Source: Candidatus Multivorans sp. (GTDB lineage Bacteria > Acidobacteriota > Thermoanaerobaculia > Multivoradales > Multivoraceae). Taken from it: a stretch of DNA of 64,000 nucleotides. Below the pieces are notes generated by a model, which saw nothing but the letters and a program-made list of their open reading frames with translations, was not told the DNA's origin and searched no databases. Numbering within the stretch: the stretch's first letter is position 1; each line of letters starts with the position of its first letter. This document shows, piece by piece, positions 35,617 through 45,842 of the stretch. The DNA lies in the NCBI GenBank assembly GCA_965224025.1, contig OZ245033.1:1376001-1440000 (forward strand), written 5' to 3'. The position numbers and the translations under genes are program-made.

Positions 35617-35837
35617 AGATCAGGAGCGCCTCTTTCGGCGCGCATCGGCCATATTGGCGTGCCCGGGCTGAGCGGGAAGCGGTGAACCTGGTAGAGCCAG
35701 TTGCTTGCTGACCGCCGCAAAGCCAACGCGGGAGTAGAGATGCAGGTCCAGCGGTTCTTTCCGCCGGACTTGGCATCGAATGTGCTGCCCCACGTTTGCA
35801 AGATGCCGCAGTCAACACGCGCGGCCGGGGGGTAGAG

Positions 35838-36455
35838 ATGAACGCGATGGCCGATCACAGTGGTGGTTGGAACTTCGATGCCGAGGTGCTGCCCTTCAAG
35901 GACAGCCTCTACAGTACGGCCTACCGGATGTCCCGGAACCGGCAGGACGCCGAAGACTTGATCCAGGAGACCTATCTTCGGGCGTACAAGTACTACGACA
36001 AGTTCCAGGAAGGGACGAACTTCAAGGCCTGGCTGTTCAAGATCCTCAAGAACACGTTCATCAACCGCTACCGCAAGCGCCAGCGGCAGCCGCTGAAGAA
36101 CTCGTTCGACGACATCGAGGGCGCCTTCGAGTGGAAGCTCCTGGAGTCGCCGTTGACGGCCCGCGGCAAGACGCCGGAAGAAGACCTGCTTGAGGGCGCC
36201 CTGGATCAGGACGTCAAGAGGGCACTCGAGGCTCTGCCTGAGGACTACCGGACGGCCGTCGAACTGGCCGATCTGCAGGGACTGTCCTACCGCGAGATTG
36301 CCGACCGGCTCCAGATCCCCCTTGGAACGGTGATGAGCCGGCTCTACCGGGGGCGGCGCAAGCTGGAGACGGTCCTGCTGCGCTACGGGCGTGACCACGG
36401 CTACATCCGTTCCGGCATGCCCCGGAAGATGCGGTCCAGGCAGGATGCGGCCTGA
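35838..36455 (+). CDS. ECF RNA polymerase sigma factor (SigH/SigR-like)
   Basis: DAEDLIQET, FQEGTNFKAWLFKI, LSYREIA...GTVMSRLYRGR. Confidence 0.92.
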   Translation: MNAMADHSGGWNFDAEVLPFKDSLYSTAYRMSRNRQDAEDLIQETYLRAYKYYDKFQEGTNFKAWLFKILKNTFINRYRKRQRQPLKNSFDDIEGAFEWKLLESPLTARGKTPEEDLLEGALDQDVKRALEALPEDYRTAVELADLQGLSYREIADRLQIPLGTVMSRLYRGRRKLETVLLRYGRDHGYIRSGMPRKMRSRQDAA

Positions 36456-36617: not shown

Positions 36618-36712
36618 AATAGTCCTGTCCCGACGACGCCGCACGCGTGCAGAATGCTCGGCGACGTGGCAGAATAGTGCCTTCGGCCGCGCCCTTCCGA
36701 CTCCGCCAAACT

Positions 36713-38056
36713 GTGTATTCCAAGCAACTTGCAGGTTGGATCTGCGTTTCGGTCCTGCTCGCCGGGACGGCCGTTCTGGGCTGGCTCGCCCTGAAGCCCC
36801 GGCCCGGAAAACTGGTTCTGGCCATTCCCGACGCGGGGGTTGACCGGGCGGGCGGCGCCGACGCCGACGAAGGCCAGGGCCTGGATGCCACTGCCCTCGA
36901 CCGGGCGCCCTTCCCTCTGGAGAACCGCATTCGAAGCGGGGACACGCTGGACCGCGTACTGCTGCGAGCGGGCGTTCCCGACTCCGAGCTGTACCAGGCG
37001 TCGAGGGCGGTAAGCGAAGTGCTCGATCCACGGAGGCTCCGAGCCCGTGACCCGGTCTATTCCATGGTGCGCCAAGGCGGGGAGTTGGTGGGTATCAAGC
37101 TGCCGCGCCGGGGCCAGGGCGTGGTGGTCGCGGAGCGAACGGACGGCGTGTGGAGCAGTCGCTACCGTCCCTTCCGGCGGGCCCACGTGCGACGGTCGTT
37201 TGCCGGCGAACTGCGGGGTGCCCTTGAGAGTTCGATTCGTCGGGCCGGCGGGCCTCCCAGCCTCGCGAACAGCATGGCCCGGGTGCTGCAGTGGGACCTG
37301 GATTTCAACCGCGATCTTCGGGTTGGCGATCGCTTCGAGATCCTCTACGACGAACTGCTGCTCGACGGCAAGTTCGAGAGTGTTGCAGCCATTCACGCGC
37401 TGCGCTACCGGAACCGGGAACGTTGGCTCGAGGCGTACCGCTTCAGCGATGACGGGGGCGCCGAAGGCACGGCGCCGGAGGGTGCCGTCGCGCTGGCGGC
37501 GACGGGACCGAACCGCTACTACGATGGCGAGGGGCAGCCGCTGCGACGGCAGTTCCTCCGTTCCCCGCTTCCATACTCCCGCGTCACGTCGCGGTTCTCC
37601 CTGAATCGCTTCCATCCGATCCTGAAGCGGCGCATGCCCCACTACGGCGTCGATTACGGGGCGCCGGTCGGAACCGCCGTGCGGGCGACTGCCGACGGCG
37701 CCGTGGCCTCGGCAGGCACTCGTGGCGGCGGCGGCCGAACCGTCCGCCTGCGTCATGCCAACGGCTACGTGACGTCCTATCTCCACCTGTCCGGCTATGC
37801 GGAGGGGATTCGTCGCGGCCGTCGCGTTCAGCAGGGTCAGGTGGTCGGTTACGTGGGTTCGAGCGGCCTCTCAACCGCTCCCCATCTCGACTACCGGGTG
37901 CAGCGCAATGGTCGTTGGATCAATCCCGCCACCCTGGTCAACGAGCCTGTTCCGCCGCTGGCCGATGCCGTGCTGCCTGCCTTTCTCCGGCACTGCGACG
38001 CGCTACGCCGGGAACTCCGCGGCGCGGACAGTTCCGTCGTTAGCGCGGGGCCGTAG
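36713..38056 (+). CDS. M23 family peptidoglycan DD-endopeptidase (MepM-like)
   Basis: N-terminal TM helix; RFHPIL, HYGVDY, YLHLS, STAPHLDY. Confidence 0.92.
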   Translation: MYSKQLAGWICVSVLLAGTAVLGWLALKPRPGKLVLAIPDAGVDRAGGADADEGQGLDATALDRAPFPLENRIRSGDTLDRVLLRAGVPDSELYQASRAVSEVLDPRRLRARDPVYSMVRQGGELVGIKLPRRGQGVVVAERTDGVWSSRYRPFRRAHVRRSFAGELRGALESSIRRAGGPPSLANSMARVLQWDLDFNRDLRVGDRFEILYDELLLDGKFESVAAIHALRYRNRERWLEAYRFSDDGGAEGTAPEGAVALAATGPNRYYDGEGQPLRRQFLRSPLPYSRVTSRFSLNRFHPILKRRMPHYGVDYGAPVGTAVRATADGAVASAGTRGGGGRTVRLRHANGYVTSYLHLSGYAEGIRRGRRVQQGQVVGYVGSSGLSTAPHLDYRVQRNGRWINPATLVNEPVPPLADAVLPAFLRHCDALRRELRGADSSVVSAGP

Positions 38057-38433: not shown

Positions 38434-39876
38434 CTACTCGAGGGAGCGGGCGCGTTCGCGGAGGATCGAGTAGGCCTCGGAGCGGGAGAGTTCGTCGTCG
38501 AGCTGGAGATTGAAGGTCTCGCTCCAGGCGCCGGTCGCCGGATCGGTCTCGACGTAAGCCAGCGAAGACCCGTTCTCCCAGGCGACCACTGCCCCGGTGC
38601 CATTGGGCGAGACGAAGATCTTCTGCTGGCCGCTTCCGGTCGTGGGGGCCGCGCGCTCCGATTTGACCTGCAACCGGGCAAGGTGCTGGACGTAGCCGTC
38701 GCCGACCGGTTGGGCGGCGGCGAGGAGCACGTGGCCGTTTCCGTTCGCGGCCCCCTCCAGTAGATCGCCTTCCTGGGATCGAGCGCCAACCAGCACGATA
38801 TGAACTCGGGCAGCACTGGAGATGCCTGTCAGACCGTCCTCAGCGCACAAGTCCGCCGCGCGATCAACGAGTACATTCTCTACGTCTTGCGCCAATGGAC
38901 TGAGCACTCGGCTCCGAATCCGGCGACCCACGAGCACGATGTGTACACGGGCCGCTTCGGCTACCGAGGTGATCGCGTCCGCTTCCTCGTTCTCGATCCG
39001 CAGGCAGAGATTGGTGGATTCCAAATGATCTGCGAGGCTGTCGGCGAGTTCTGCCAGTTCGACTGCCGGTGTGGAGAGTTCCAACTGGACGAAGGCTCCG
39101 CTGGCGCTATCCGCGAAACCGATGACAACCGCGTTGGACTCGGAGGCGGAGTCGACGGTGGGTGCCTTGAGCAGACTCGCCGGCACTTCGCCGTCGAACG
39201 GATCGTCGATCAACTCCTGCGATACGTAGTCGTTCAGCCGGTGAACGCGGCGCCACGTGGATGCAAGCTCGCCGTTGATGAGAACGACAGGCGCGTACAT
39301 GGCCCTCTCGCCATCGGCCGTGTTTTCCGACCAGACGACATGAAGGACGGTTCGGGCGCTCGACAGGCCGCTACTTCCTTCCGCGAGTTCGAATCGATCG
39401 TGCGTGACGGCGAGGCGCGGGGCCGACTTGTTGCTATAGATGTTGCCGGAGACTTCAATGGTGTCGGACCATTCGCTGCCGTCGAAGGAGGCCAGGTTGA
39501 TCCGCGTCAGGGTCGAGTCGTTGTTGCTCGACCAAACGACGTAGAGCCGGCCGGTGGAGGCGTCGAAGAACAGCGACGGCGTCTTGTCGCTGTCGTCCGC
39601 CTCGCTGCCGGGCACCAGGTGGTGCTCGACCGTGCCGGAACCGCGCCGGGCCTCTAGCAGTAGGACTTCGGCTTCGGCCGAGGCTTCGCTGCCATCCGGG
39701 AACAAGTCGACGTAAGTTCCGATGACGATTTGGTAGACATCGCCGCTCTTTCCCAGCACCGGTGCGCTGTTCGCGGCATGCAACGCACCGTTGCCGAACA
39801 GCAATGCCAGGACTGCTGCACCGACCGTGCCAGCCAGTCGTCCCCCGTTCGAGATTTTCTTGAGCATGCGCTTCAT
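38434..39876 (-). CDS. Secreted hypothetical protein with a duplicated AARVHIVLVG peptide
   Basis: Signal peptide ending ALHA; beta-rich body (LYVVW, LHVVW, AVVAW) with a helical insert holding the two repeats; TGATG overlap with the upstream TPR gene. Confidence 0.85.
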   Translation of the reverse strand: MKRMLKKISNGGRLAGTVGAAVLALLFGNGALHAANSAPVLGKSGDVYQIVIGTYVDLFPDGSEASAEAEVLLLEARRGSGTVEHHLVPGSEADDSDKTPSLFFDASTGRLYVVWSSNNDSTLTRINLASFDGSEWSDTIEVSGNIYSNKSAPRLAVTHDRFELAEGSSGLSSARTVLHVVWSENTADGERAMYAPVVLINGELASTWRRVHRLNDYVSQELIDDPFDGEVPASLLKAPTVDSASESNAVVIGFADSASGAFVQLELSTPAVELAELADSLADHLESTNLCLRIENEEADAITSVAEAARVHIVLVGRRIRSRVLSPLAQDVENVLVDRAADLCAEDGLTGISSAARVHIVLVGARSQEGDLLEGAANGNGHVLLAAAQPVGDGYVQHLARLQVKSERAAPTTGSGQQKIFVSPNGTGAVVAWENGSSLAYVETDPATGAWSETFNLQLDDELSRSEAYSILRERARSLE

Positions 39877-40886
39877 CACGCTCTCAGGTTCACCACTTGC
39901 CGGACATCGAGCGACATGAGCACATTCGCAAGTCCAGTCTGCTCGGGATAGAAGCGCTGCTGAAGCTCGTGGAAGAACTGACGCGCCCCTTCGGTGTCCC
40001 GGTCCAGTATGGCCGCCTGTCCCAGCAGGTACAGGCTGTTCTTGACCGCATCCCAGTTTTCGTGCTGGCGGGCCAAGTTCAGGGCGCGTTGGCCATGCCG
40101 CTTTGCGTCGCTCGGCCGGTTCAACTCTAGGTGAGCGAAACACAGGTCCAGGTGCGGCAGTATGCTGAGTTGGACCGCTCCTTCGCGCCGAAAGGTGCGG
40201 ATGCTCCGGTAGACCAACCGAAGCCCCTCCCGCATTCTGGCACGACGAAAGCCCTTGGCCCCGAGCGCACTGACGAGTAGGCAGTGGCCCAGATTCGTCT
40301 CGGCGCTGGCTGTCCAGGCAGGCGGTGCGCCGTTCGCGTCGCGCAGCGCCGTTCGGTAACAGACAGCTGCCTCAGTTTCCCTGCCTTCGGCCACTAGGAG
40401 GTTACCCATGAGAGTCTGCGCCAAGCCTGTGAGGCCGTCGCGCTCGACATACACCGCACGATCGCGGAACAACCGGGCATAGAAGAGCGCCTTCTTGATC
40501 TGCCCCTCCAACTCGTGCGCGCGGGCCAAGGTATAGGAGGCCAGACAAGAGTTGTGGTCGACGGTGGTTCCGAGCAGGATCGGCCGCAGTCTGGGCATGA
40601 CCTCGGCCCCGTTCCCGAGTTCGGTCTCCGCCGCTCCCCAGCCGCAGAGGGCCTCGTCGGCCAGGTCGGCTTCGCCCGCGGCGGCGGCGACTTGGGCGGC
40701 CTGTCGATAGACGGCGGCGGCTTCCCGGTACGAGCCCGTGGCGACCAGTTCCCGCCCGCGGTCGCGGAGCGTCTCGAAGTCCTCGGTCACGTCGGTCGCG
40801 CACGCCTCCACCTCGGGCGCTGGAACGCGCTCCGGGATAAACGTCGGCTCAGGCGACGAGTGGGTGGGAAGAACTGTGGCGGTCAC
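39876..40886 (-). CDS. Cytoplasmic TPR-like helical-repeat protein
   Basis: No signal peptide; repeated helix pairs (GSYREAAAVYRQA, GQIKKALFYAR, GRETEAAVCYRTAL, NSLYLLGQAA); TAGAAT 9 nt before the GTG. Confidence 0.8.
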   Translation of the reverse strand: MTATVLPTHSSPEPTFIPERVPAPEVEACATDVTEDFETLRDRGRELVATGSYREAAAVYRQAAQVAAAAGEADLADEALCGWGAAETELGNGAEVMPRLRPILLGTTVDHNSCLASYTLARAHELEGQIKKALFYARLFRDRAVYVERDGLTGLAQTLMGNLLVAEGRETEAAVCYRTALRDANGAPPAWTASAETNLGHCLLVSALGAKGFRRARMREGLRLVYRSIRTFRREGAVQLSILPHLDLCFAHLELNRPSDAKRHGQRALNLARQHENWDAVKNSLYLLGQAAILDRDTEGARQFFHELQQRFYPEQTGLANVLMSLDVRQVVNLRA

Positions 40887-41217
40887 TGGTAACCGATTCT
40901 ACGCCATAACGAGTGGAAGGTGGTAGGCGGCTGGAACTGCCGTTGTCGACGACCTGCCGCGGGGCCTCGACGGCCGAGTATACCCGCATAGGCACCGCCT
41001 GCAGCACGGCGATAGCCGTGCCTTCCGATCTCTCTTGTGCGGCAGGCCTTCGTAGCCGCGGCGGCCGTTCCCCAGGCTCGCCCAAGAGCAAGAGCGCCGT
41101 CCCTGACTTGAACAGGAACGGCGCCCAAGGGGATTCGTCGCGGGAGCGTACTGGCGGCTGGTCGCTCACTAGTCGTTCAGACCGCTGCCAGCCTCGCGCC
41201 GGCGATCCCAAGTTGTC

Positions 41218-41400
41218 TCAGAACGCCAGGCGAAAGGCGGCCGCCACGGCGGACCGCACCACCTTGCCCGAGATTCGCGGAGCCATACGGCTGACCGCCT
41301 GCTGCACGATCCCGCCATCCGCTTGCCGCTCGGCGGTTCCGGAATTCCGGCTGCCTTCACGTCCAACGAGGACGATGTGGGCCCTTGCGCAAGTGCACGG
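41218..41400 (-). other. Unannotated reading frame containing ARAHIVLVGR (small peptide gene or pseudogene)
   Basis: Hand translation: PCTCARAHIVLVGREGSRNSGTAERQADGGIVQQAVSRMAPRISGKVVRSAVAAAFRLAF*; no in-frame canonical start codon before the motif. Confidence 0.5.
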
Positions 41401-41459
41401 CGGTGCGTCTCCCGCAGCGCCAACGAAGCCGGAATCGACTGGACTACAATGCTCGCTCC

Positions 41460-41752
41460 ATGATCCGGTCGTTCGTCGATCGAGCCACCGAGGACATCTT
41501 CGACGGCGCGGCGACGCGAGCGGCTCGGAGAGGGTGTCCTCCTGCCGTTTGGCGTGTTGCCCGAAGGAAGCTCACGCAGCTCAACCAAGTGGACGAACTC
41601 CGCTATTTGGCTGTGCCGCCGGCAACCGCCTGGAGCGGCCGCGAGGAGATCGAGCCGGTCAGTACAGCATCCGAATCAACGACCACTATCGAGCCTGTCT
41701 TGTCTGGGAGGGAGGCTATGCCGACGACGTCGAAATCGCCGACTACCACTGA
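41460..41752 (+). pseudogene. higB: HigB-family toxin, frameshifted
   Basis: MIRSF.DRATEDIFDG..RKL..L...LAVPP, 1-nt deletion near 41621, then GNRLE..RGDRAGQYSIRINDHYR...EIADYH. Confidence 0.88.
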
Positions 41753-41783
41753 GGCGGCTGCGGGCAGCCGCGGTGGAGGAACT

Positions 41784-42107
41784 CTGTCCGCACGCCGGTT
41801 GCCACGGTGTCAACCCCCGGCGCACCCGGGAGAGATGCTGCTCGAGGAGTTCCTGAAGCCGTTGGGCATCTCGCAGTCGGCATTTGCCCGGAGGCTGGGT
41901 GTCTCCTATCCGCGCCTTCGTGGGATCGTCCATGCCAAGGGCACCGTGACTGCAGATACGGCGTTGCGGTTGGCCCGAGTTACCGGGATGACCGCCGAAT
42001 TCTGGCTCGGCCTGCAGCAGGACTGGGATCTCTGGCACGCTGCACGGTCCAGGAACGCGGCAGCCATCGAGGCACTGGAGCCGCTGCGTACCTCGGCTAC
42101 TTCGTAG
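41784..42107 (+). CDS. higA: HigA-family antitoxin
   Basis: HPGEMLLEEFLKPLGISQ, HTH, TADTALRLA, EFWLGLQ; GGAGG precedes an in-frame CTG at 41784, so the start is uncertain. Confidence 0.9.
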   Translation: MSARRLPRCQPPAHPGEMLLEEFLKPLGISQSAFARRLGVSYPRLRGIVHAKGTVTADTALRLARVTGMTAEFWLGLQQDWDLWHAARSRNAAAIEALEPLRTSATS

Positions 42108-42205
42108 CCGCCGCGTTCCCGCCGGCGTCCGGCGAGGGTGCGCCGGGAGGGGCGAGGTACGCGGGCTAGACTGGCAGGCATCGCCGAACGGGCGAGTGCA
42201 TGCCG

Positions 42206-43812
42206 ATGGCCGAGCGCTTCTTCAACACCTCCGGGCCGGTGGTTCCGGCCAAGCACTACAGCATCCCGCCGCTTGAACGGTTCGACCTCGCCGAGGTCCT
42301 GCGCCTGATCGGGGACGAGCGGTACTTCGTGCTGCACGCGCCGCGCCAGACGGGGAAGACGTCAGCGCTGCTGGCGCTTCGCGACCTGCTGAACGAGGGG
42401 AACGAGTACCGCTGCGTCTACGCCAACATCGAGACCGCACAGACGGCGCGCGGCGATGTCGGCGCGGGGATTCGGACCGTGTTGGCGGAGATCTCGGAGC
42501 AGGCGCTTGTCGCTCCGGGCGACGACTTTCTGGATGGGATGTGGGAACGGGCGCTTGCTCGGGCGGGTCCGCACGGCGCCCTGCGGCTCGCGTTGGGCCG
42601 TTGGTCGCAGAACGATGTCAGGCCGCTGGTCCTGTTCCTGGACGAGATCGACGCGCTGGTGGGCGACACGCTGATCTCGGTGCTGCGCCAGTTGCGGGCG
42701 GGGTACGCCAACCGTCCGGCGGCCTTTCCCCAGACCGTGATCCTGTGCGGGATCCGCGACGTGCGTGACTACCGCATCCACTCGGAGTCGGGGGACGAGA
42801 TCATCGCCGGCGGCAGTGCGTTCAACATCAAGGCGGAGTCGCTGCGGCTGGGCGACTTCGACGAGGGCGACGTGTGCGCGTTGCTTGGCCAGCACACCGG
42901 GGAGACGGGGCAGCCGTTTACCGAAGCGGCGCTCGCCACGGTATGGAACCAGACGGAAGGTCAGCCGTGGCTGGTAAACGCGCTGGGCTACCAGGCCTGC
43001 TTCAAGGCCAAGCCTGCTCGGGACCGCTCGCGGCCGATCGACGAGAAGCGGTCATGGAGGCCAGGGAGGAGTTGATCCTGGGCCGCCAGACGCATCTTCA
43101 CCAGTTGGCGGACAAGCTGCGCGAGGAGCGGGTGCGGCGGGTGGTGGAACCCGTCCTGAGCGGCGGCGCGGCCGGCCGAGCCAGGCCCGACGACGTGGAG
43201 TACGTGCGCGACCTTGGACTCCTGGCGCCGGGTGGCACGGCGCGGATAGCCAACCCGATCTACCGGGAGGTGATCCCGCGGGAACTCAACTACGCCCGGG
43301 AGGCCATGATCGTCCAGGAGACCGAATGGTACGTGAAGCCGGACGGCGACCTCGACGTGGAGGGTCTGCTGGCGGCCTTCCAGCGGTTCTTCCGGGAGCA
43401 TTCGGAGCACTGGCTCGAGCGGTTCCAGTACAAGGAAGCGGGTCCGCAGTTGCTGCTGCAGGCGTTCCTTCAGCGGATCGTGAACGGCGGCCGCCGGATC
43501 GAGCGCGAGTACGCGCTGGGCAGCCGCCGCACGGATCTGCTGATCGTGTGGCCGCCCGGCCGCTTCGGCGGCGCGAGCGAGCCGGCCGAGCCCGCGCGCC
43601 GCTACGTCGTGGAGTGCAAGATCCTGCGGGGGAGCCTGGAGGCCACGATCCGCGAGGGGCTGAAACAGACCCTGGCCTACATGGACAAGTGCCGGGGCGA
43701 GTCGGGGCATCTGGTGATCTTCGACCGGGACGGGTCGAAGCCGTGGGAGGAGAAGATCTTCCGGCGCGAGGAGTCGCTGGACGGCCGGGCCGTGACCGTG
43801 TGGGGTGCCTGA
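42206..43812 (+). pseudogene. AAA-like ATPase with a C-terminal PD-(D/E)XK domain, split by a frameshift near 43044
   Basis: FFNTSGP, Walker A APRQTGKT, Walker B FLDEID, GQPWLV; continues in ORF 42874-43812 as EAVMEAREEL..NPIY..REY..RTDL..VECK. Confidence 0.82.
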
Positions 43813-43904: not shown

Positions 43905-45842
43905 CTACACGTCCAGGCCGACCTGGCGCATCAGGTCGAGTGCATTGCTGCGCGTTACGGTGCCCTCGCGTAGGCGGTAGTCGAAGCGGATCTCGCCGTC
44001 TTCCAGTTGATCCCTGAAGTGGACGTTTTGCAGGGACGCTTCCCCCGAATCGTCGGCGATCTGGGCCAGGGCCAGATCGTGGGTGGTGACAAGTCCGATC
44101 GCACCGCGGTCGAGGAGGCCCCGGATCAGGCCTTCGGCGCCGACTCGGCGGTCGTGGGAGTTCGTGCCGTGGAGAATCTCATCGAGCAGGAACAGCGCCG
44201 GCGTCGCCTGGTCGGTCAGGTCGAGCACGGACTTGAGCTTCGTGATCTCGGCGTAGAACCTGGATTGGCCTTCGGCAAGAGAGTCCCGGAGCTGGATGGA
44301 ACAGCCGATGGCCAGCGGCGTCAGCCGGAGCGACCGAGCGCGCACCGGCGCGCCGGCTTGGGCGAGGACGACGTTCGTTCCGACCGTCCTCAGCAGAGTG
44401 CTCTTGCCGGACATGTTCGAGCCGCTCACGATCAGGCATAGGGCCGGCGATGGCGGTTCGATGGGGGCCGTCGTTTCCCTGGCGGCTGCGGTTGTGACGT
44501 CCGCCTGGACTCCCAGAACGACGTCGTTCGCTACGCAGTCCTCCGCGGGCAGCAGGGGGTGCCCGAGCGCTCTGCCTTCGAGCAGTGGGCGTTTCTTCCC
44601 GGACGGCTCCAGCAGTGTGGGGAAGGTGTGGTCCGGATGCTCGAACGCGTGGGAGGCGAGACTGGCAAGGGCTTCGACCTCGGCCAGCGCGCTGAGCCAG
44701 GCGGCAACCCGGTCGCCGTGGCGACGGCGCCAGGAGTCGATCGCGTAGGTGAGTTGAGGAGTCCAGAGCAGCAGCAGGCCGAATGGGACGAAGAGAGCGT
44801 TGCGCATCGAGTCGAGGAGGTCGACCAGGCGTTGCAACTGCCTTGCGTGTTGGGAGGCCGGGGTTCCATCGACGCTTCGCAGCCGCTGCGCCAGCTCGAT
44901 CAGACCGTTGCTCTCGAACGGCTCGCGCTCGATGACCTCCAGCAGAGATGCAACCAGGTTGAGGTCTCGGCTTGCCCGCGTCACGCCGGCCGTGGCCGCC
45001 TTGAAGTGGCGGCGCCTGCCGAGGCTCAGGAGGATCTGCAGCATCGCCAGGGCAAGGAGGGGTGACGGCCCCCAGCTCCAGATCATCCAGCCGGTCACGG
45101 CGAGAACGTTGGCGCCCGCGGTCAAACCCAGCAGGGAGCGCGCCAGGAACTCCCGGCCGCCGGCGCCGGGGAGTGCGGGCCGCCCGTCACCCTCCGCCCA
45201 AGCGCGCAGCGCCTCCGGATCGAGGTCGGTGCGCGCGATTCGACCAGAGGCGGCGAGACGCTCGCGCAGGTCGAGGCGGGGCGCCAATTCGCATACGGCC
45301 TCCTGCCGCCTACGCACGACCTCGGGTGACGCGGGCCGAAGCAACCACGACGCCAGGAGTTCGTCGCCGCCGCGGGTGCGCGCCCGGCTCAACATCTGGA
45401 ACAGGGAGTCGGGGCCGAACAGGTCGAGGTCCGCGGCGTATACGTGGTCGGCGTGTTCGTCGGCAAAGCGCGATCCGGGGCGGCCGCCGGCGCGCCAGTC
45501 GCCGTCGAGGCGGTCGAGAATCTGTCGGTAGAAGGCTTGCGCCAGCGCCAGCCGGTGAGCCCGCTGCAGGACGCGTTCGTGGAGGACGATGAGGACGAGA
45601 AAGAGGGACGCCGGCGCTGCCGCCCAGGCCAAGGAGAAGAGCTGTGCCTGGACCGCCAGCCAGACGAGCACGGCCGACAGAAGAACCGTGGCAAGCCGCG
45701 ACCAGGAGACGGTCTTCTCGATGCGCCGCGTTCGCTCCAGGGTCGCCGCGCGCCGCTCGGAGCGGCGTTCCATCCGTGCGCCCGCGGACGAGCGCACGGA
45801 CTGGTTCGCGCCATCCGCGTTCCCAGGCCCGGAGTGGTTCAT
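43905..45842 (-). CDS. Membrane-anchored MutS-related ATPase (MutS domain V)
   Basis: TM helices, DLDLFG..SLFQ, HPLL, GSNMSGKST, S.FYAE, DEILHGTN, TTHD. Confidence 0.9.
   Translation of the reverse strand: MNHSGPGNADGANQSVRSSAGARMERRSERRAATLERTRRIEKTVSWSRLATVLLSAVLVWLAVQAQLFSLAWAAAPASLFLVLIVLHERVLQRAHRLALAQAFYRQILDRLDGDWRAGGRPGSRFADEHADHVYAADLDLFGPDSLFQMLSRARTRGGDELLASWLLRPASPEVVRRRQEAVCELAPRLDLRERLAASGRIARTDLDPEALRAWAEGDGRPALPGAGGREFLARSLLGLTAGANVLAVTGWMIWSWGPSPLLALAMLQILLSLGRRRHFKAATAGVTRASRDLNLVASLLEVIEREPFESNGLIELAQRLRSVDGTPASQHARQLQRLVDLLDSMRNALFVPFGLLLLWTPQLTYAIDSWRRRHGDRVAAWLSALAEVEALASLASHAFEHPDHTFPTLLEPSGKKRPLLEGRALGHPLLPAEDCVANDVVLGVQADVTTAAARETTAPIEPPSPALCLIVSGSNMSGKSTLLRTVGTNVVLAQAGAPVRARSLRLTPLAIGCSIQLRDSLAEGQSRFYAEITKLKSVLDLTDQATPALFLLDEILHGTNSHDRRVGAEGLIRGLLDRGAIGLVTTHDLALAQIADDSGEASLQNVHFRDQLEDGEIRFDYRLREGTVTRSNALDLMRQVGLDV

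Follow-up and report, generated by a model that had tools for sequence, protein, structure and literature searches.

The stretch of DNA analyzed here comprises 64,000 nucleotides (nt) of contig OZ245033.1 from a genome of Candidatus Multivorans sp., a member of the phylum Acidobacteriota, and is referred to throughout as the window. On its minus strand lie a gene for a tetratricopeptide repeat (TPR) protein and, directly downstream of it, a gene for a large exported protein, the two being coupled by a TGATG overlap that joins the stop of the TPR gene to the ATG of the large gene. The large protein carries the peptide AARVHIVLVG twice, and a closely similar peptide, ARAHIVLVGR, is encoded farther upstream. 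A reading made from the letters alone (the sequence-only reading) had singled out these three minus-strand elements, namely, an unannotated frame, the TPR gene, and the coupled gene for a secreted protein with the repeated peptide, and all three are in place:

39876..40886, minus strand: TPR gene, 336 residues (open reading frame call, Pfam matches to TPR families only, AlphaFold2, Foldseek, covariation)
38434..39876, minus strand: gene for the large exported protein, 480 residues; signal peptide at about residues 1-34; predicted BNR/sialidase-like beta-propeller
38773..39063, minus strand: helical insertion of the large protein, residues 272-368, with both motif copies inside it (AlphaFold2)
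38926..38955, minus strand: motif copy 1, AARVHIVLVG, residues 308-317
38785..38814, minus strand: motif copy 2, AARVHIVLVG, residues 355-364
41218..41426, minus strand: 3' remnant (pseudogene) of a gene for a small secreted protein
41359..41388, minus strand: third motif copy, ARAHIVLVGR, equivalent to motif copy 2 of the small protein
41426..41428: junction of a deletion of about 430 nt relative to three related loci (L003, L057, and L058)

In the window's genus the motif has the general form A-R-x3-H-x5-V-x7-x8-G, and its positions are referred to below by these numbers. The two copies in the large gene of the window differ in 7 of their 10 codons, and the upstream copy departs from them at one of nine residues, at x3 (A for V), and again uses other codons; the earlier claim that the peptide, and not the DNA, is conserved is upheld by these counts. 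In a six-frame translation of the 5,142,510-base genome the pattern [AG]R.H[ILV]V[ILV][VFG]G has three matches, which are exactly these three copies. A chance origin of the upstream copy was rejected on this count (three occurrences in 5.1 Mb), and the three-copy observation is real, with chance excluded. The same genome holds a single copy of the large gene and one TPR protein of this family.

The gene pair and its wider family

The TPR protein matches only the Pfam families TPR_2, TPR_14, and TPR_12; no signal peptide or N-terminal extension was seen on it, and in relatives just 4 to 6 codons lie between its start and the preceding stop. Its AlphaFold2 model, computed from a 49-row alignment (predicted local distance difference test [pLDDT] score, 87.5), begins with a disordered stretch (residues 1-33), which is followed by seven TPR-like helix pairs (residues 37-312) and then by a capping helix. 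The best Foldseek matches of this model are the peptide-binding TPR domains of LGN/Pins (template modeling [TM] scores of 0.53 to 0.69), and next come Rap proteins (0.56 to 0.61), including RapJ-PhrC, RapI, and the Rap of phage phi3T, some of them bound to pheromone. Against the PDB, the profile of the same alignment recovers generic TPRs, with Rap3T at an E value of 1e-4 over 105 residues, weaker than consensus TPR proteins, OGT, and LGN.

The large protein starts with a Sec-type signal peptide, as read by eye, and residues 1-34 have a pLDDT below 50 in its AlphaFold2 model (35-row alignment; pLDDT, 85.8; predicted TM score, 0.84). The remainder is modeled as a beta-propeller interrupted by the helical insertion at residues 272-368, which also holds the only two cysteines of the protein, C291 and C344, both invariant in 117 of 117 genus-level homologues. 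Foldseek points to sialidases and PLL lectins at E values of about 1e-5, with TM scores of only 0.22 to 0.36; clusters of BNR_4 proteins in the ESM Atlas (0.88 to 0.89) are weak leads only, and SxDGxxW-like turns can be read by eye. Neither Pfam nor NCBIfam has a family for this 480-residue protein, and NCBIfam gives no meaningful match for the TPR protein, the large protein, or the small upstream protein described below. Both motif copies are modeled as helices (residues 301-316 and 322-368) at a pLDDT of about 90 within the folded insertion. The sequence-only reading had conceded that it would fail if the repeats were buried structural helices; the model bears out the helical half of that description for both copies and only that half.

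Homologues of the large protein number 120 among the matches listed, at 28 to 100% identity, and are mostly unnamed proteins from metagenome-assembled genomes of Holophagales or Acidobacteria. The protein is found in 55 of the 57 genomes of the taxonomic family, including all 41 other genomes of the genus, and among the loci retrieved (L001-L055) every one of the 53 distinct pairs has its TPR gene immediately upstream and in the same orientation; 11 of these pairs come from other genera at 26 to 33% identity. Tandem duplicates occur in 5 genomes, where every duplicate is itself a pair of a TPR gene and a large gene. Farther out, where the loci come from other families within the order and the class, the TPR gene again sits upstream in 19 of 19 that could be assessed, the twentieth being cut by a contig end. 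The conserved adjacency that the sequence-only reading called for is thus present at both depths. In a sample of 401 genomes from across the phylum, 31 have a match at an E value of 1e-10 or less, and all of these belong to the same class except for one partial match. Signal peptides were read by eye on all large homologues, and none was read on the TPR proteins.

Fifteen of the loci from other families of the class (L083-L097) encode a shorter propeller of about 340 to 360 residues beside the TPR protein. These short forms lack profile positions from about 273 to 414, and with them the helical insertion, and have no exact repeat of at least 7 residues; by eye, each of the 15 has a single motif-like segment, which contains proline. 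The statement also holds without one of these loci, L094, which comes from genome G080. The topology is that of the long forms: signal peptides are present on the short propellers wherever the N-terminus is (L088 is cut at a contig end) and absent from their TPR neighbors. The short forms may represent the ancestral state of the module.

A profile of the 35-row alignment gathers 893 clusters (at 50% identity) at an E value of 1e-3 or less, 409 of them at 1e-30 or less. Among 147 newly listed full-length representatives with at most 50% mutual identity, 128 contain an exact internal repeat of 8 to 18 residues, 10 contain one of 5 to 7 residues, and 9 have no repeat of at least 5; shuffled controls reach at most 6 residues. 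The repeat unit in this wider family is roughly [LA]-A-D-x-x-R-x-[HQ]-[IL]-[IV]-x-x-G. Taken together, these comparisons indicate a putative two-gene recognition module that is conserved across a class-level lineage of Acidobacteriota.

Identity of the motif copies and covariation with the TPR protein

For the genus, the large protein of the window was aligned with 116 homologues to give 117 sequences, after one protein at 28% identity (P0120) and three fragments (P0110, P0118, and P0119) had been dropped. In 115 of the 117 proteins the two 9-mers are identical to each other, and 24 different 9-mers occur overall, which is the identity within and variation between genomes that the sequence-only reading had proposed to look for. 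On a 117-tip tree computed with residues 300-372 masked, parsimony assigns 31 changes to x3 in copy 1, 31 in copy 2, and 31 shared by both; the corresponding counts are 10, 9, and 9 for x5, 28, 28, and 28 for x7, and 23, 23, and 23 for x8. Shared changes always fall on the same branch and bring in the same replacement residue. With 23 to 31 changes, x3, x7, and x8 lie between the per-site median of 5.5 and the 95th percentile of 36.

Among the 53 distinct large genes from the retrieved loci, 50 encode an exact repeat of 8 to 13 residues. When all 53 are taken together, 251 of the 512 repeat codons compared differ synonymously between copies. That half of the codons differ argues that identity is maintained at the level of the protein and not by gene conversion, which is ruled out as its cause by this count and by the 7 of 10 codons that differ in the window. 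Tandem paralogues within one genome have different variants, each of them internally identical. Homologues at about 30% identity have yet other peptides, such as ARSHIIGVG, VRASIVPIGR, and ASDARANIVTIAR, again in two or three identical copies, whose places shift within the insertion. What emerges is a large unannotated protein family of 893 clusters, with internal repeats that appear to be kept alike by selection on the protein and not by homogenization of the DNA.

The variation of the motif is mirrored in the TPR protein. Covariation was assessed over 42 genus-level pairs, the 11 distant pairs being excluded by the requirement for two motifs spaced 47 residues apart. The TPR residues that covary with the motif are 48/49, 75, 140/143, 155/157, 197, 212, 218, 238-241, and 256. 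An F at x8 goes with G48 (and mostly N49) in 12 of 12 pairs, a G with L48 in 3 of 3, and a V with V48 in 26 of 27. At x3, V is matched by T197 in 17 of 17 pairs, I or H by G197 in 20 of 20, and A by V197, together with L218, P239, and L241, in 5 of 5. Position x7 varies with a further set of residues: where it is L, residue 143 is R in 15 of 15 pairs, and F140 and Q157 are present in 14 of 15; V is paired with H143 in 15 of 16 and I with I143 in 8 of 11. Finally, an L at x5 is accompanied by Q or Y at TPR residue 212, and a V by V212. The pairing of large with small residues (F with Gly48, V with Val48, and G with Leu48) is as would be expected for side chains that share a pocket.

The mutual information of the covarying TPR columns is 0.83 to 0.97, against at most 0.66 for columns of the large protein outside the motif. 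Residue 48 scores 0.83 with x8 and 0.08 with x3, and residue 197 scores 0.97 with x3 and 0.02 with x8; this position specificity makes linkage or shared ancestry a less likely cause. In a tree computed from the concatenated proteins minus the covarying columns, 9 of 9 changes at x8 share a branch with a change at residue 48 (1.1 expected), as do 6 of 11 changes at x3 with residue 197 (1.2 expected). The covarying residues change 6 to 17 times, compared with a per-site median of 4, and in the AlphaFold2 model they map mostly to A helices (A1, A2, A4, A5, and A6) and to B3. In a TPR superhelix, the A helices line the groove.

These patterns argue that the concave groove of the TPR protein very probably binds the motif, and the comparison between genomes together with the position-specific covariation lends strong support to the earlier proposal that the motif is its specificity ligand. 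We infer further that the C-terminal end of the motif would be oriented toward the first TPR repeat and that specificity would be set by x3, x5, x7, and x8, matched, respectively, by residue 197 (with 218/239/241), residue 212, residues 140/143/155/157, and residues 48/49. A complex prediction for the TPR protein and residues 343-381 of the large protein, run without controls, scored 0.00 and speaks neither for nor against binding. If the TPR protein does read the motif, the outcome is a legible code between TPR and peptide, in which four peptide positions face about a dozen groove residues, and its knob-and-hole exchanges (F/Gly, V/Val, and G/Leu) could be used to build orthogonal peptide-binding modules.

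The small upstream gene and the neighborhood

The third motif copy belongs to a different gene. The minus-strand frame through 41359-41388 reads ...PPCTCARAHIVLVGREG..., and no ATG, GTG, or TTG start lies upstream of the copy in its open frame. Seven relatives (L002, L003, L005, and L056-L059) have an intact small gene about 335 nt upstream of the TPR gene, with an AAGGGGG ribosome-binding site, a TTG start, and a product of 109 to 113 residues. This product has a signal peptide of the form MKLKHIVIALSLILATVPA..FA, with QGG or QDG directly after it; its two motif copies read ..TNAR.H....GAT.. and, in most genomes, ..C.CAR.H....GRE.., and its tail is conserved. In the window, similarity to the small gene sets in within copy 1 and runs through to the stop (41426-41218); the ribosome-binding site, the TTG start, the signal peptide, and the greater part of copy 1 are absent. 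A clean junction beside a higBA pair marks the loss of about 430 nt compared with L003, L057, and L058, and a contig from a sequencing run (X1, record 6) spans this junction with zero differences; the run is possibly that of the window's source sample. The small gene of the window was inactivated by this deletion. The hidden upstream frame of the sequence-only reading does encode the motif at 41359-41388; it is not free-standing, being the 3' part of a truncated gene.

Among the 37 genus genomes examined, 8 have the small gene, intact or as a remnant. In these 8 genomes, none of the 15 small-protein copies equals the variant of the genome's own large protein, an outcome with a probability of about 0.35 by chance and not significant. 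The expectation that upstream DNA would encode the genome-specific variant, and with it the idea of an upstream decoy carrying the same peptide, was not borne out: upstream copies are confined to these few genomes, sit in a separate gene for a secreted protein, and are non-cognate. In genomes that hold both copies, the two differ from each other, and 12 of the 15 are found as 9-mers of large proteins in other genomes. Across the seven intact genes, 7 of 8 x positions vary, compared with 29 of 100 other columns (Fisher P = 0.0018, a value overstated by the close kinship of the genomes).

Two other origins or roles for these peptides were rejected. A second cognate TPR protein finds no place, there being a single TPR protein of this family in 5 of 5 genomes with an intact small gene and likewise one in the window's genome. 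The idea that the small gene arose from an upstream paralogue of the large gene, since deleted, is contradicted by the flanks of the small gene, which by eye are unlike the large protein.

The same sample also contains a more abundant second strain (runs X1/X2, record 5), in which 248 other letters stand between 41426 and 41729. In this strain, base changes at 41362-41383 convert the remnant's motif to the variant of genome G050 (A to H at x3 and L to V at x7), which indicates that strains with different small-protein variants co-occur. The spacer of about 330 nt between the stop of the small gene and the start of the TPR gene (40887-41217) is 85 to 90% identical among genomes with the small gene, as conserved as the flanking coding DNA, and is not conserved in genomes without it. 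An Rfam search of 40700-41600 gave nothing below an E value of 0.39. In the DNA that precedes the TPR gene, genus-wide conservation is limited to the start region, and no common operator emerged.

Divergent from the remnant, on the plus strand at 41460-42107, is the higB-higA pair, with an HTH_3 domain in higA. The higB gene is split over two frames near 41620, where a relative's contig has an extra G, and its C-terminal 41 residues match PF05015 (E value of 1e-3). Beyond it, at 42200-43812 on the plus strand, two overlapping open reading frames in different frames (42200-43075, with weak matches to AAA_16, AAA_22, and AAA_35, and 42874-43812, without a family) have the appearance of a single ATPase gene disrupted by a frameshift. 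Past these intervening genes, on the same strand as the TPR gene and upstream of it, lies a MutS2-like gene at 43905-45842 (MutS_V and MutS_III); in L052 a MutS2-like gene (1013-2896) directly precedes the TPR gene. On the other side, the large gene faces a convergent plus-strand gene (36647-38056) for an M23 peptidase that has a Csd3_N2 domain, preceded in the window by a gene for an extracytoplasmic function sigma factor (35796-36455); the peptidase is also found near the large gene in 6 of 12 other annotated loci (L041, L042, L044, L046, L048, and L052), a case of conserved synteny. In 2 of the 12 annotated loci, both of them distant paralogue loci, the TPR gene has a gene of the TraB/PrgY/GumN family (PF01963) upstream of it and in the same orientation (L049, 1212-2468, E value of 4e-33; L050, 1269-2516, E value of 2e-31). 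PrgY and TraB control pheromone in enterococci; the presence of the family here may be coincidence.

Possible roles of the pair and parallels in known systems

We tentatively propose, with slightly less than even confidence in the statement as a whole, that the pair is a signal-receptor system like Rap-Phr and other RRNPP systems, comprising export, release, uptake, and sensing. The TPR gene product would be a cytoplasmic superhelix of the LGN/Rap type, and its coupled partner a Sec-exported, BNR-like propeller whose insertion holds two, and in some relatives three, identical motif copies. A single reader that has to fit every copy would keep the copies identical, even as the pair drifted or diversified from strain to strain and each tandem paralogue retained a variant of its own. 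Proteolysis of the exported carrier would release motif peptides, which would be taken up again so that the TPR protein senses its own variant; it would act through protein-protein contacts, as it lacks a DNA-binding domain. The third motif copy, farther upstream, is what remains of an accessory secreted-protein gene with two non-cognate variants. We prefer signaling on account of the turnover of variants, the orthogonality of tandem paralogues, and the accessory secreted protein with its other variants, which would be explained only by an extracellular role. The topology described above, with signal peptides on the large homologues and none on the TPR proteins, supports this reading; five genes for OppA-type binding proteins (SBP_bac_5) in the genome are merely permissive for uptake. 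An extended version, which we consider rather unlikely, is a true pherotype (pheromone-receptor) system in a diderm phylum, in which two or three identical copies of the signal are kept within a folded, exported propeller, hundreds of orthogonal specificities are spread over about 900 clusters, and, in one subclade, an accessory secreted protein displays the "self" peptides of other strains. Were this the case, the accessory variants would allow interference with, or the addressing of, foreign pherotypes.

A number of observations weigh against signaling. The locus has no linked gene for a processing protease, an exporter, or an importer, and neither Pfam, NCBIfam, nor the AlphaFold2 model reveals a helix-turn-helix (HTH) or other output domain in the TPR protein. 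The carrier is a conserved, folded propeller of 480 residues, unlike any known pheromone precursor, and the helical motif copies inside its modeled insertion may be inaccessible in the mature protein. Across much of the wider family, exact repeats run to 13 to 18 residues, a length equally compatible with an unfolded chain lying in a long groove and with a short free peptide, and the class-level relatives keep their TPR neighbor despite having a single motif-like segment. Further, the absence of a self variant from the small protein is not significant (about 0.35 by chance), and the motif and the TPR specificity sites, judged by their rates on the trees, are fast and not the fastest, which is too little to establish diversifying selection.

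Several of these points bear on the main rival, a dedicated chaperone or holdase that acts before export: the TPR protein would bind the motif in the unfolded precursor, keep the hydrophobic insertion soluble and competent for export, and release the chain at the Sec translocon, the covariation being ordinary compensatory coevolution between a private chaperone and its client. Translational coupling would then serve to match the amounts of the two proteins, and a TPR protein inside the cell with a client that bears a signal peptide poses no problem of export and reimport. The long recognized segment (13 to 18 residues in much of the family) suits a protein whose nearest fold, LGN, binds long extended chains; the persistence of the pair throughout the class, including loci whose propeller has just one motif-like segment, is also accommodated, and binding before folding comes naturally to a motif that is modeled as folded helices. 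A chaperone, however, leaves unexplained a small secreted protein with two non-cognate, fast-varying copies, as well as 24 variants that turn over at nearly the rates of loop positions within one genus, and it gives only a weak reason for distinct variants in tandem paralogues. To our knowledge, no dedicated TPR chaperone for Sec substrates has been described, and on balance we regard this explanation as possible, if on the unlikely side. Less probable by far is a neutralization of the effector-immunity kind, in which the propeller would be harmful if folded in the cytoplasm, the TPR protein would hold or block it, and diversification would reflect conflict or the insulation of paralogues. It would account for the tight gene pair, for the co-diversifying specificity, and for the distinct specificities of tandem paralogues; yet the large protein has no toxin or enzyme signature (no Pfam or NCBIfam match and only a weak similarity to sialidases), variation is confined to a short motif, with 62 to 86% conservation over the remainder of the protein, the protector gene lies upstream, and the annotated loci have no mobile or secretion-system neighbors.

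Two further explanations were weighed. The repeats might be purely structural, identical helices packing within the insertion, with the TPR covariation as an artifact of linkage or ancestry. Both copies are indeed modeled as helices, and residues between them have moderate mutual information with x3 (0.58 to 0.66). Yet the motif positions fall within 18 nt, for which linkage predicts equal TPR profiles, and the profiles of x8 with residue 48 and of x3 with residue 197 differ; changes on the same branch are 5 to 8 times above expectation, packing predicts complementary and not identical residues, and in the small protein the motif persists although its two copies there are not identical. We consider this explanation very improbable. 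That gene conversion at the DNA level keeps the copies identical, with the upstream copy as a chance match, is scarcely credible: repeats 60 to 290 nt apart could in principle recombine, but the codons differ between copies (251 of 512 overall and 7 of 10 in the window), the motif pattern occurs only three times in 5.1 Mb, and the upstream copy belongs to a gene conserved in 7 relatives.

With regard to precedent, our search found no description of such a lock-and-key pairing of a TPR protein with an exported protein for Acidobacteriota; no paper joining RRNPP systems with Acidobacteria and none on "Candidatus Multivorans" was retrieved, and the peptide pheromone systems with TPR receptors that came up were all Gram positive, the supplementary lists of RRNPP surveys, which may name candidates outside Firmicutes, lying outside the search. 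Among TPR proteins encoded beside an export substrate, the class II chaperones of type III secretion systems (T3SS), such as LcrH/SycD and IpgC, are about 160 residues long with three repeats, recognize a short linear motif in their substrates, and serve adjacent T3SS translocators. The module resembles them in that a cytoplasmic TPR protein is encoded next to a motif-bearing export protein and differs in its 336 residues, its seven repeats, and a partner with a Sec signal peptide; the annotated neighbors included no T3SS genes. Multicopy precursors, as for yeast alpha-factor, neuropeptides, and multicore ribosomally synthesized and posttranslationally modified peptides, offer a parallel for identical copies kept alike by one receptor or enzyme. 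These are dedicated carriers that are cut up completely, whereas here the copies lie inside a conserved folded domain protein.

The closest structural parallel is LGN/Pins (GPSM2), the best match of the TPR protein both in structure and among PDB profiles. In LGN/Pins, a superhelix of seven to eight repeats binds a long extended peptide (of NuMA, Inscuteable, or Frmpd) along its inner groove, and binding of this kind agrees with the spread of covarying residues from helix A1 to A6. Unlike the module, LGN/Pins proteins are eukaryotic cell polarity proteins whose ligands are neither repeated nor co-diversifying, and no evolutionary link is implied. The enterococcal PrgX and TraA receptors, in turn, recognize hydrophobic peptides of 7 to 8 residues that come from larger exported proteins, namely, from lipoprotein signal sequences, and a second small gene in these systems encodes a related, competing inhibitor peptide. 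The likeness to the module lies in peptides cut from a larger exported protein and in a related second small gene; the enterococcal systems differ in drawing the peptide from a signal sequence, in an HTH-containing receptor, and in being plasmid borne in Firmicutes.

Three accounts of the RRNPPA family (PMC9765709, PMC10075063, and PMC11343458) describe cytoplasmic TPR receptors of Firmicutes whose genes adjoin small secreted propeptide genes, with some propeptides holding several pheromone copies or with several propeptide genes present, and place such peptide pheromone/TPR receptor systems in Gram-positive Firmicutes and mobile elements. The module departs from these in several respects. Its host phylum is the diderm Acidobacteriota; the putative ligand lies inside a folded beta-propeller of 480 residues and not in a propeptide of 30 to 60; and there is no small cognate propeptide, the protein of 109 to 113 residues being present in 8 of 37 genomes only and carrying other variants. 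The TPR protein has neither an HTH nor the N-terminal three-helix bundle of Rap, its helices starting at residue 37, and its resemblance to known subfamilies appears unspecific, the profile similarity to Rap (E value of 1e-4) being that of generic TPRs. Rap proteins, for their part, are also devoid of a DNA-binding domain. The resemblance, in turn, extends to the layout, where, as in Rap-Phr, the gene for a cytoplasmic TPR receptor adjoins or overlaps that for the carrier of a Sec-exported ligand in the same gene order, and to several peptide copies per carrier and a specificity that diversifies between strains and paralogues. If the pair does signal, gene-encoded peptide communication through cytoplasmic TPR receptors would extend to diderm bacteria, with a new kind of precursor.

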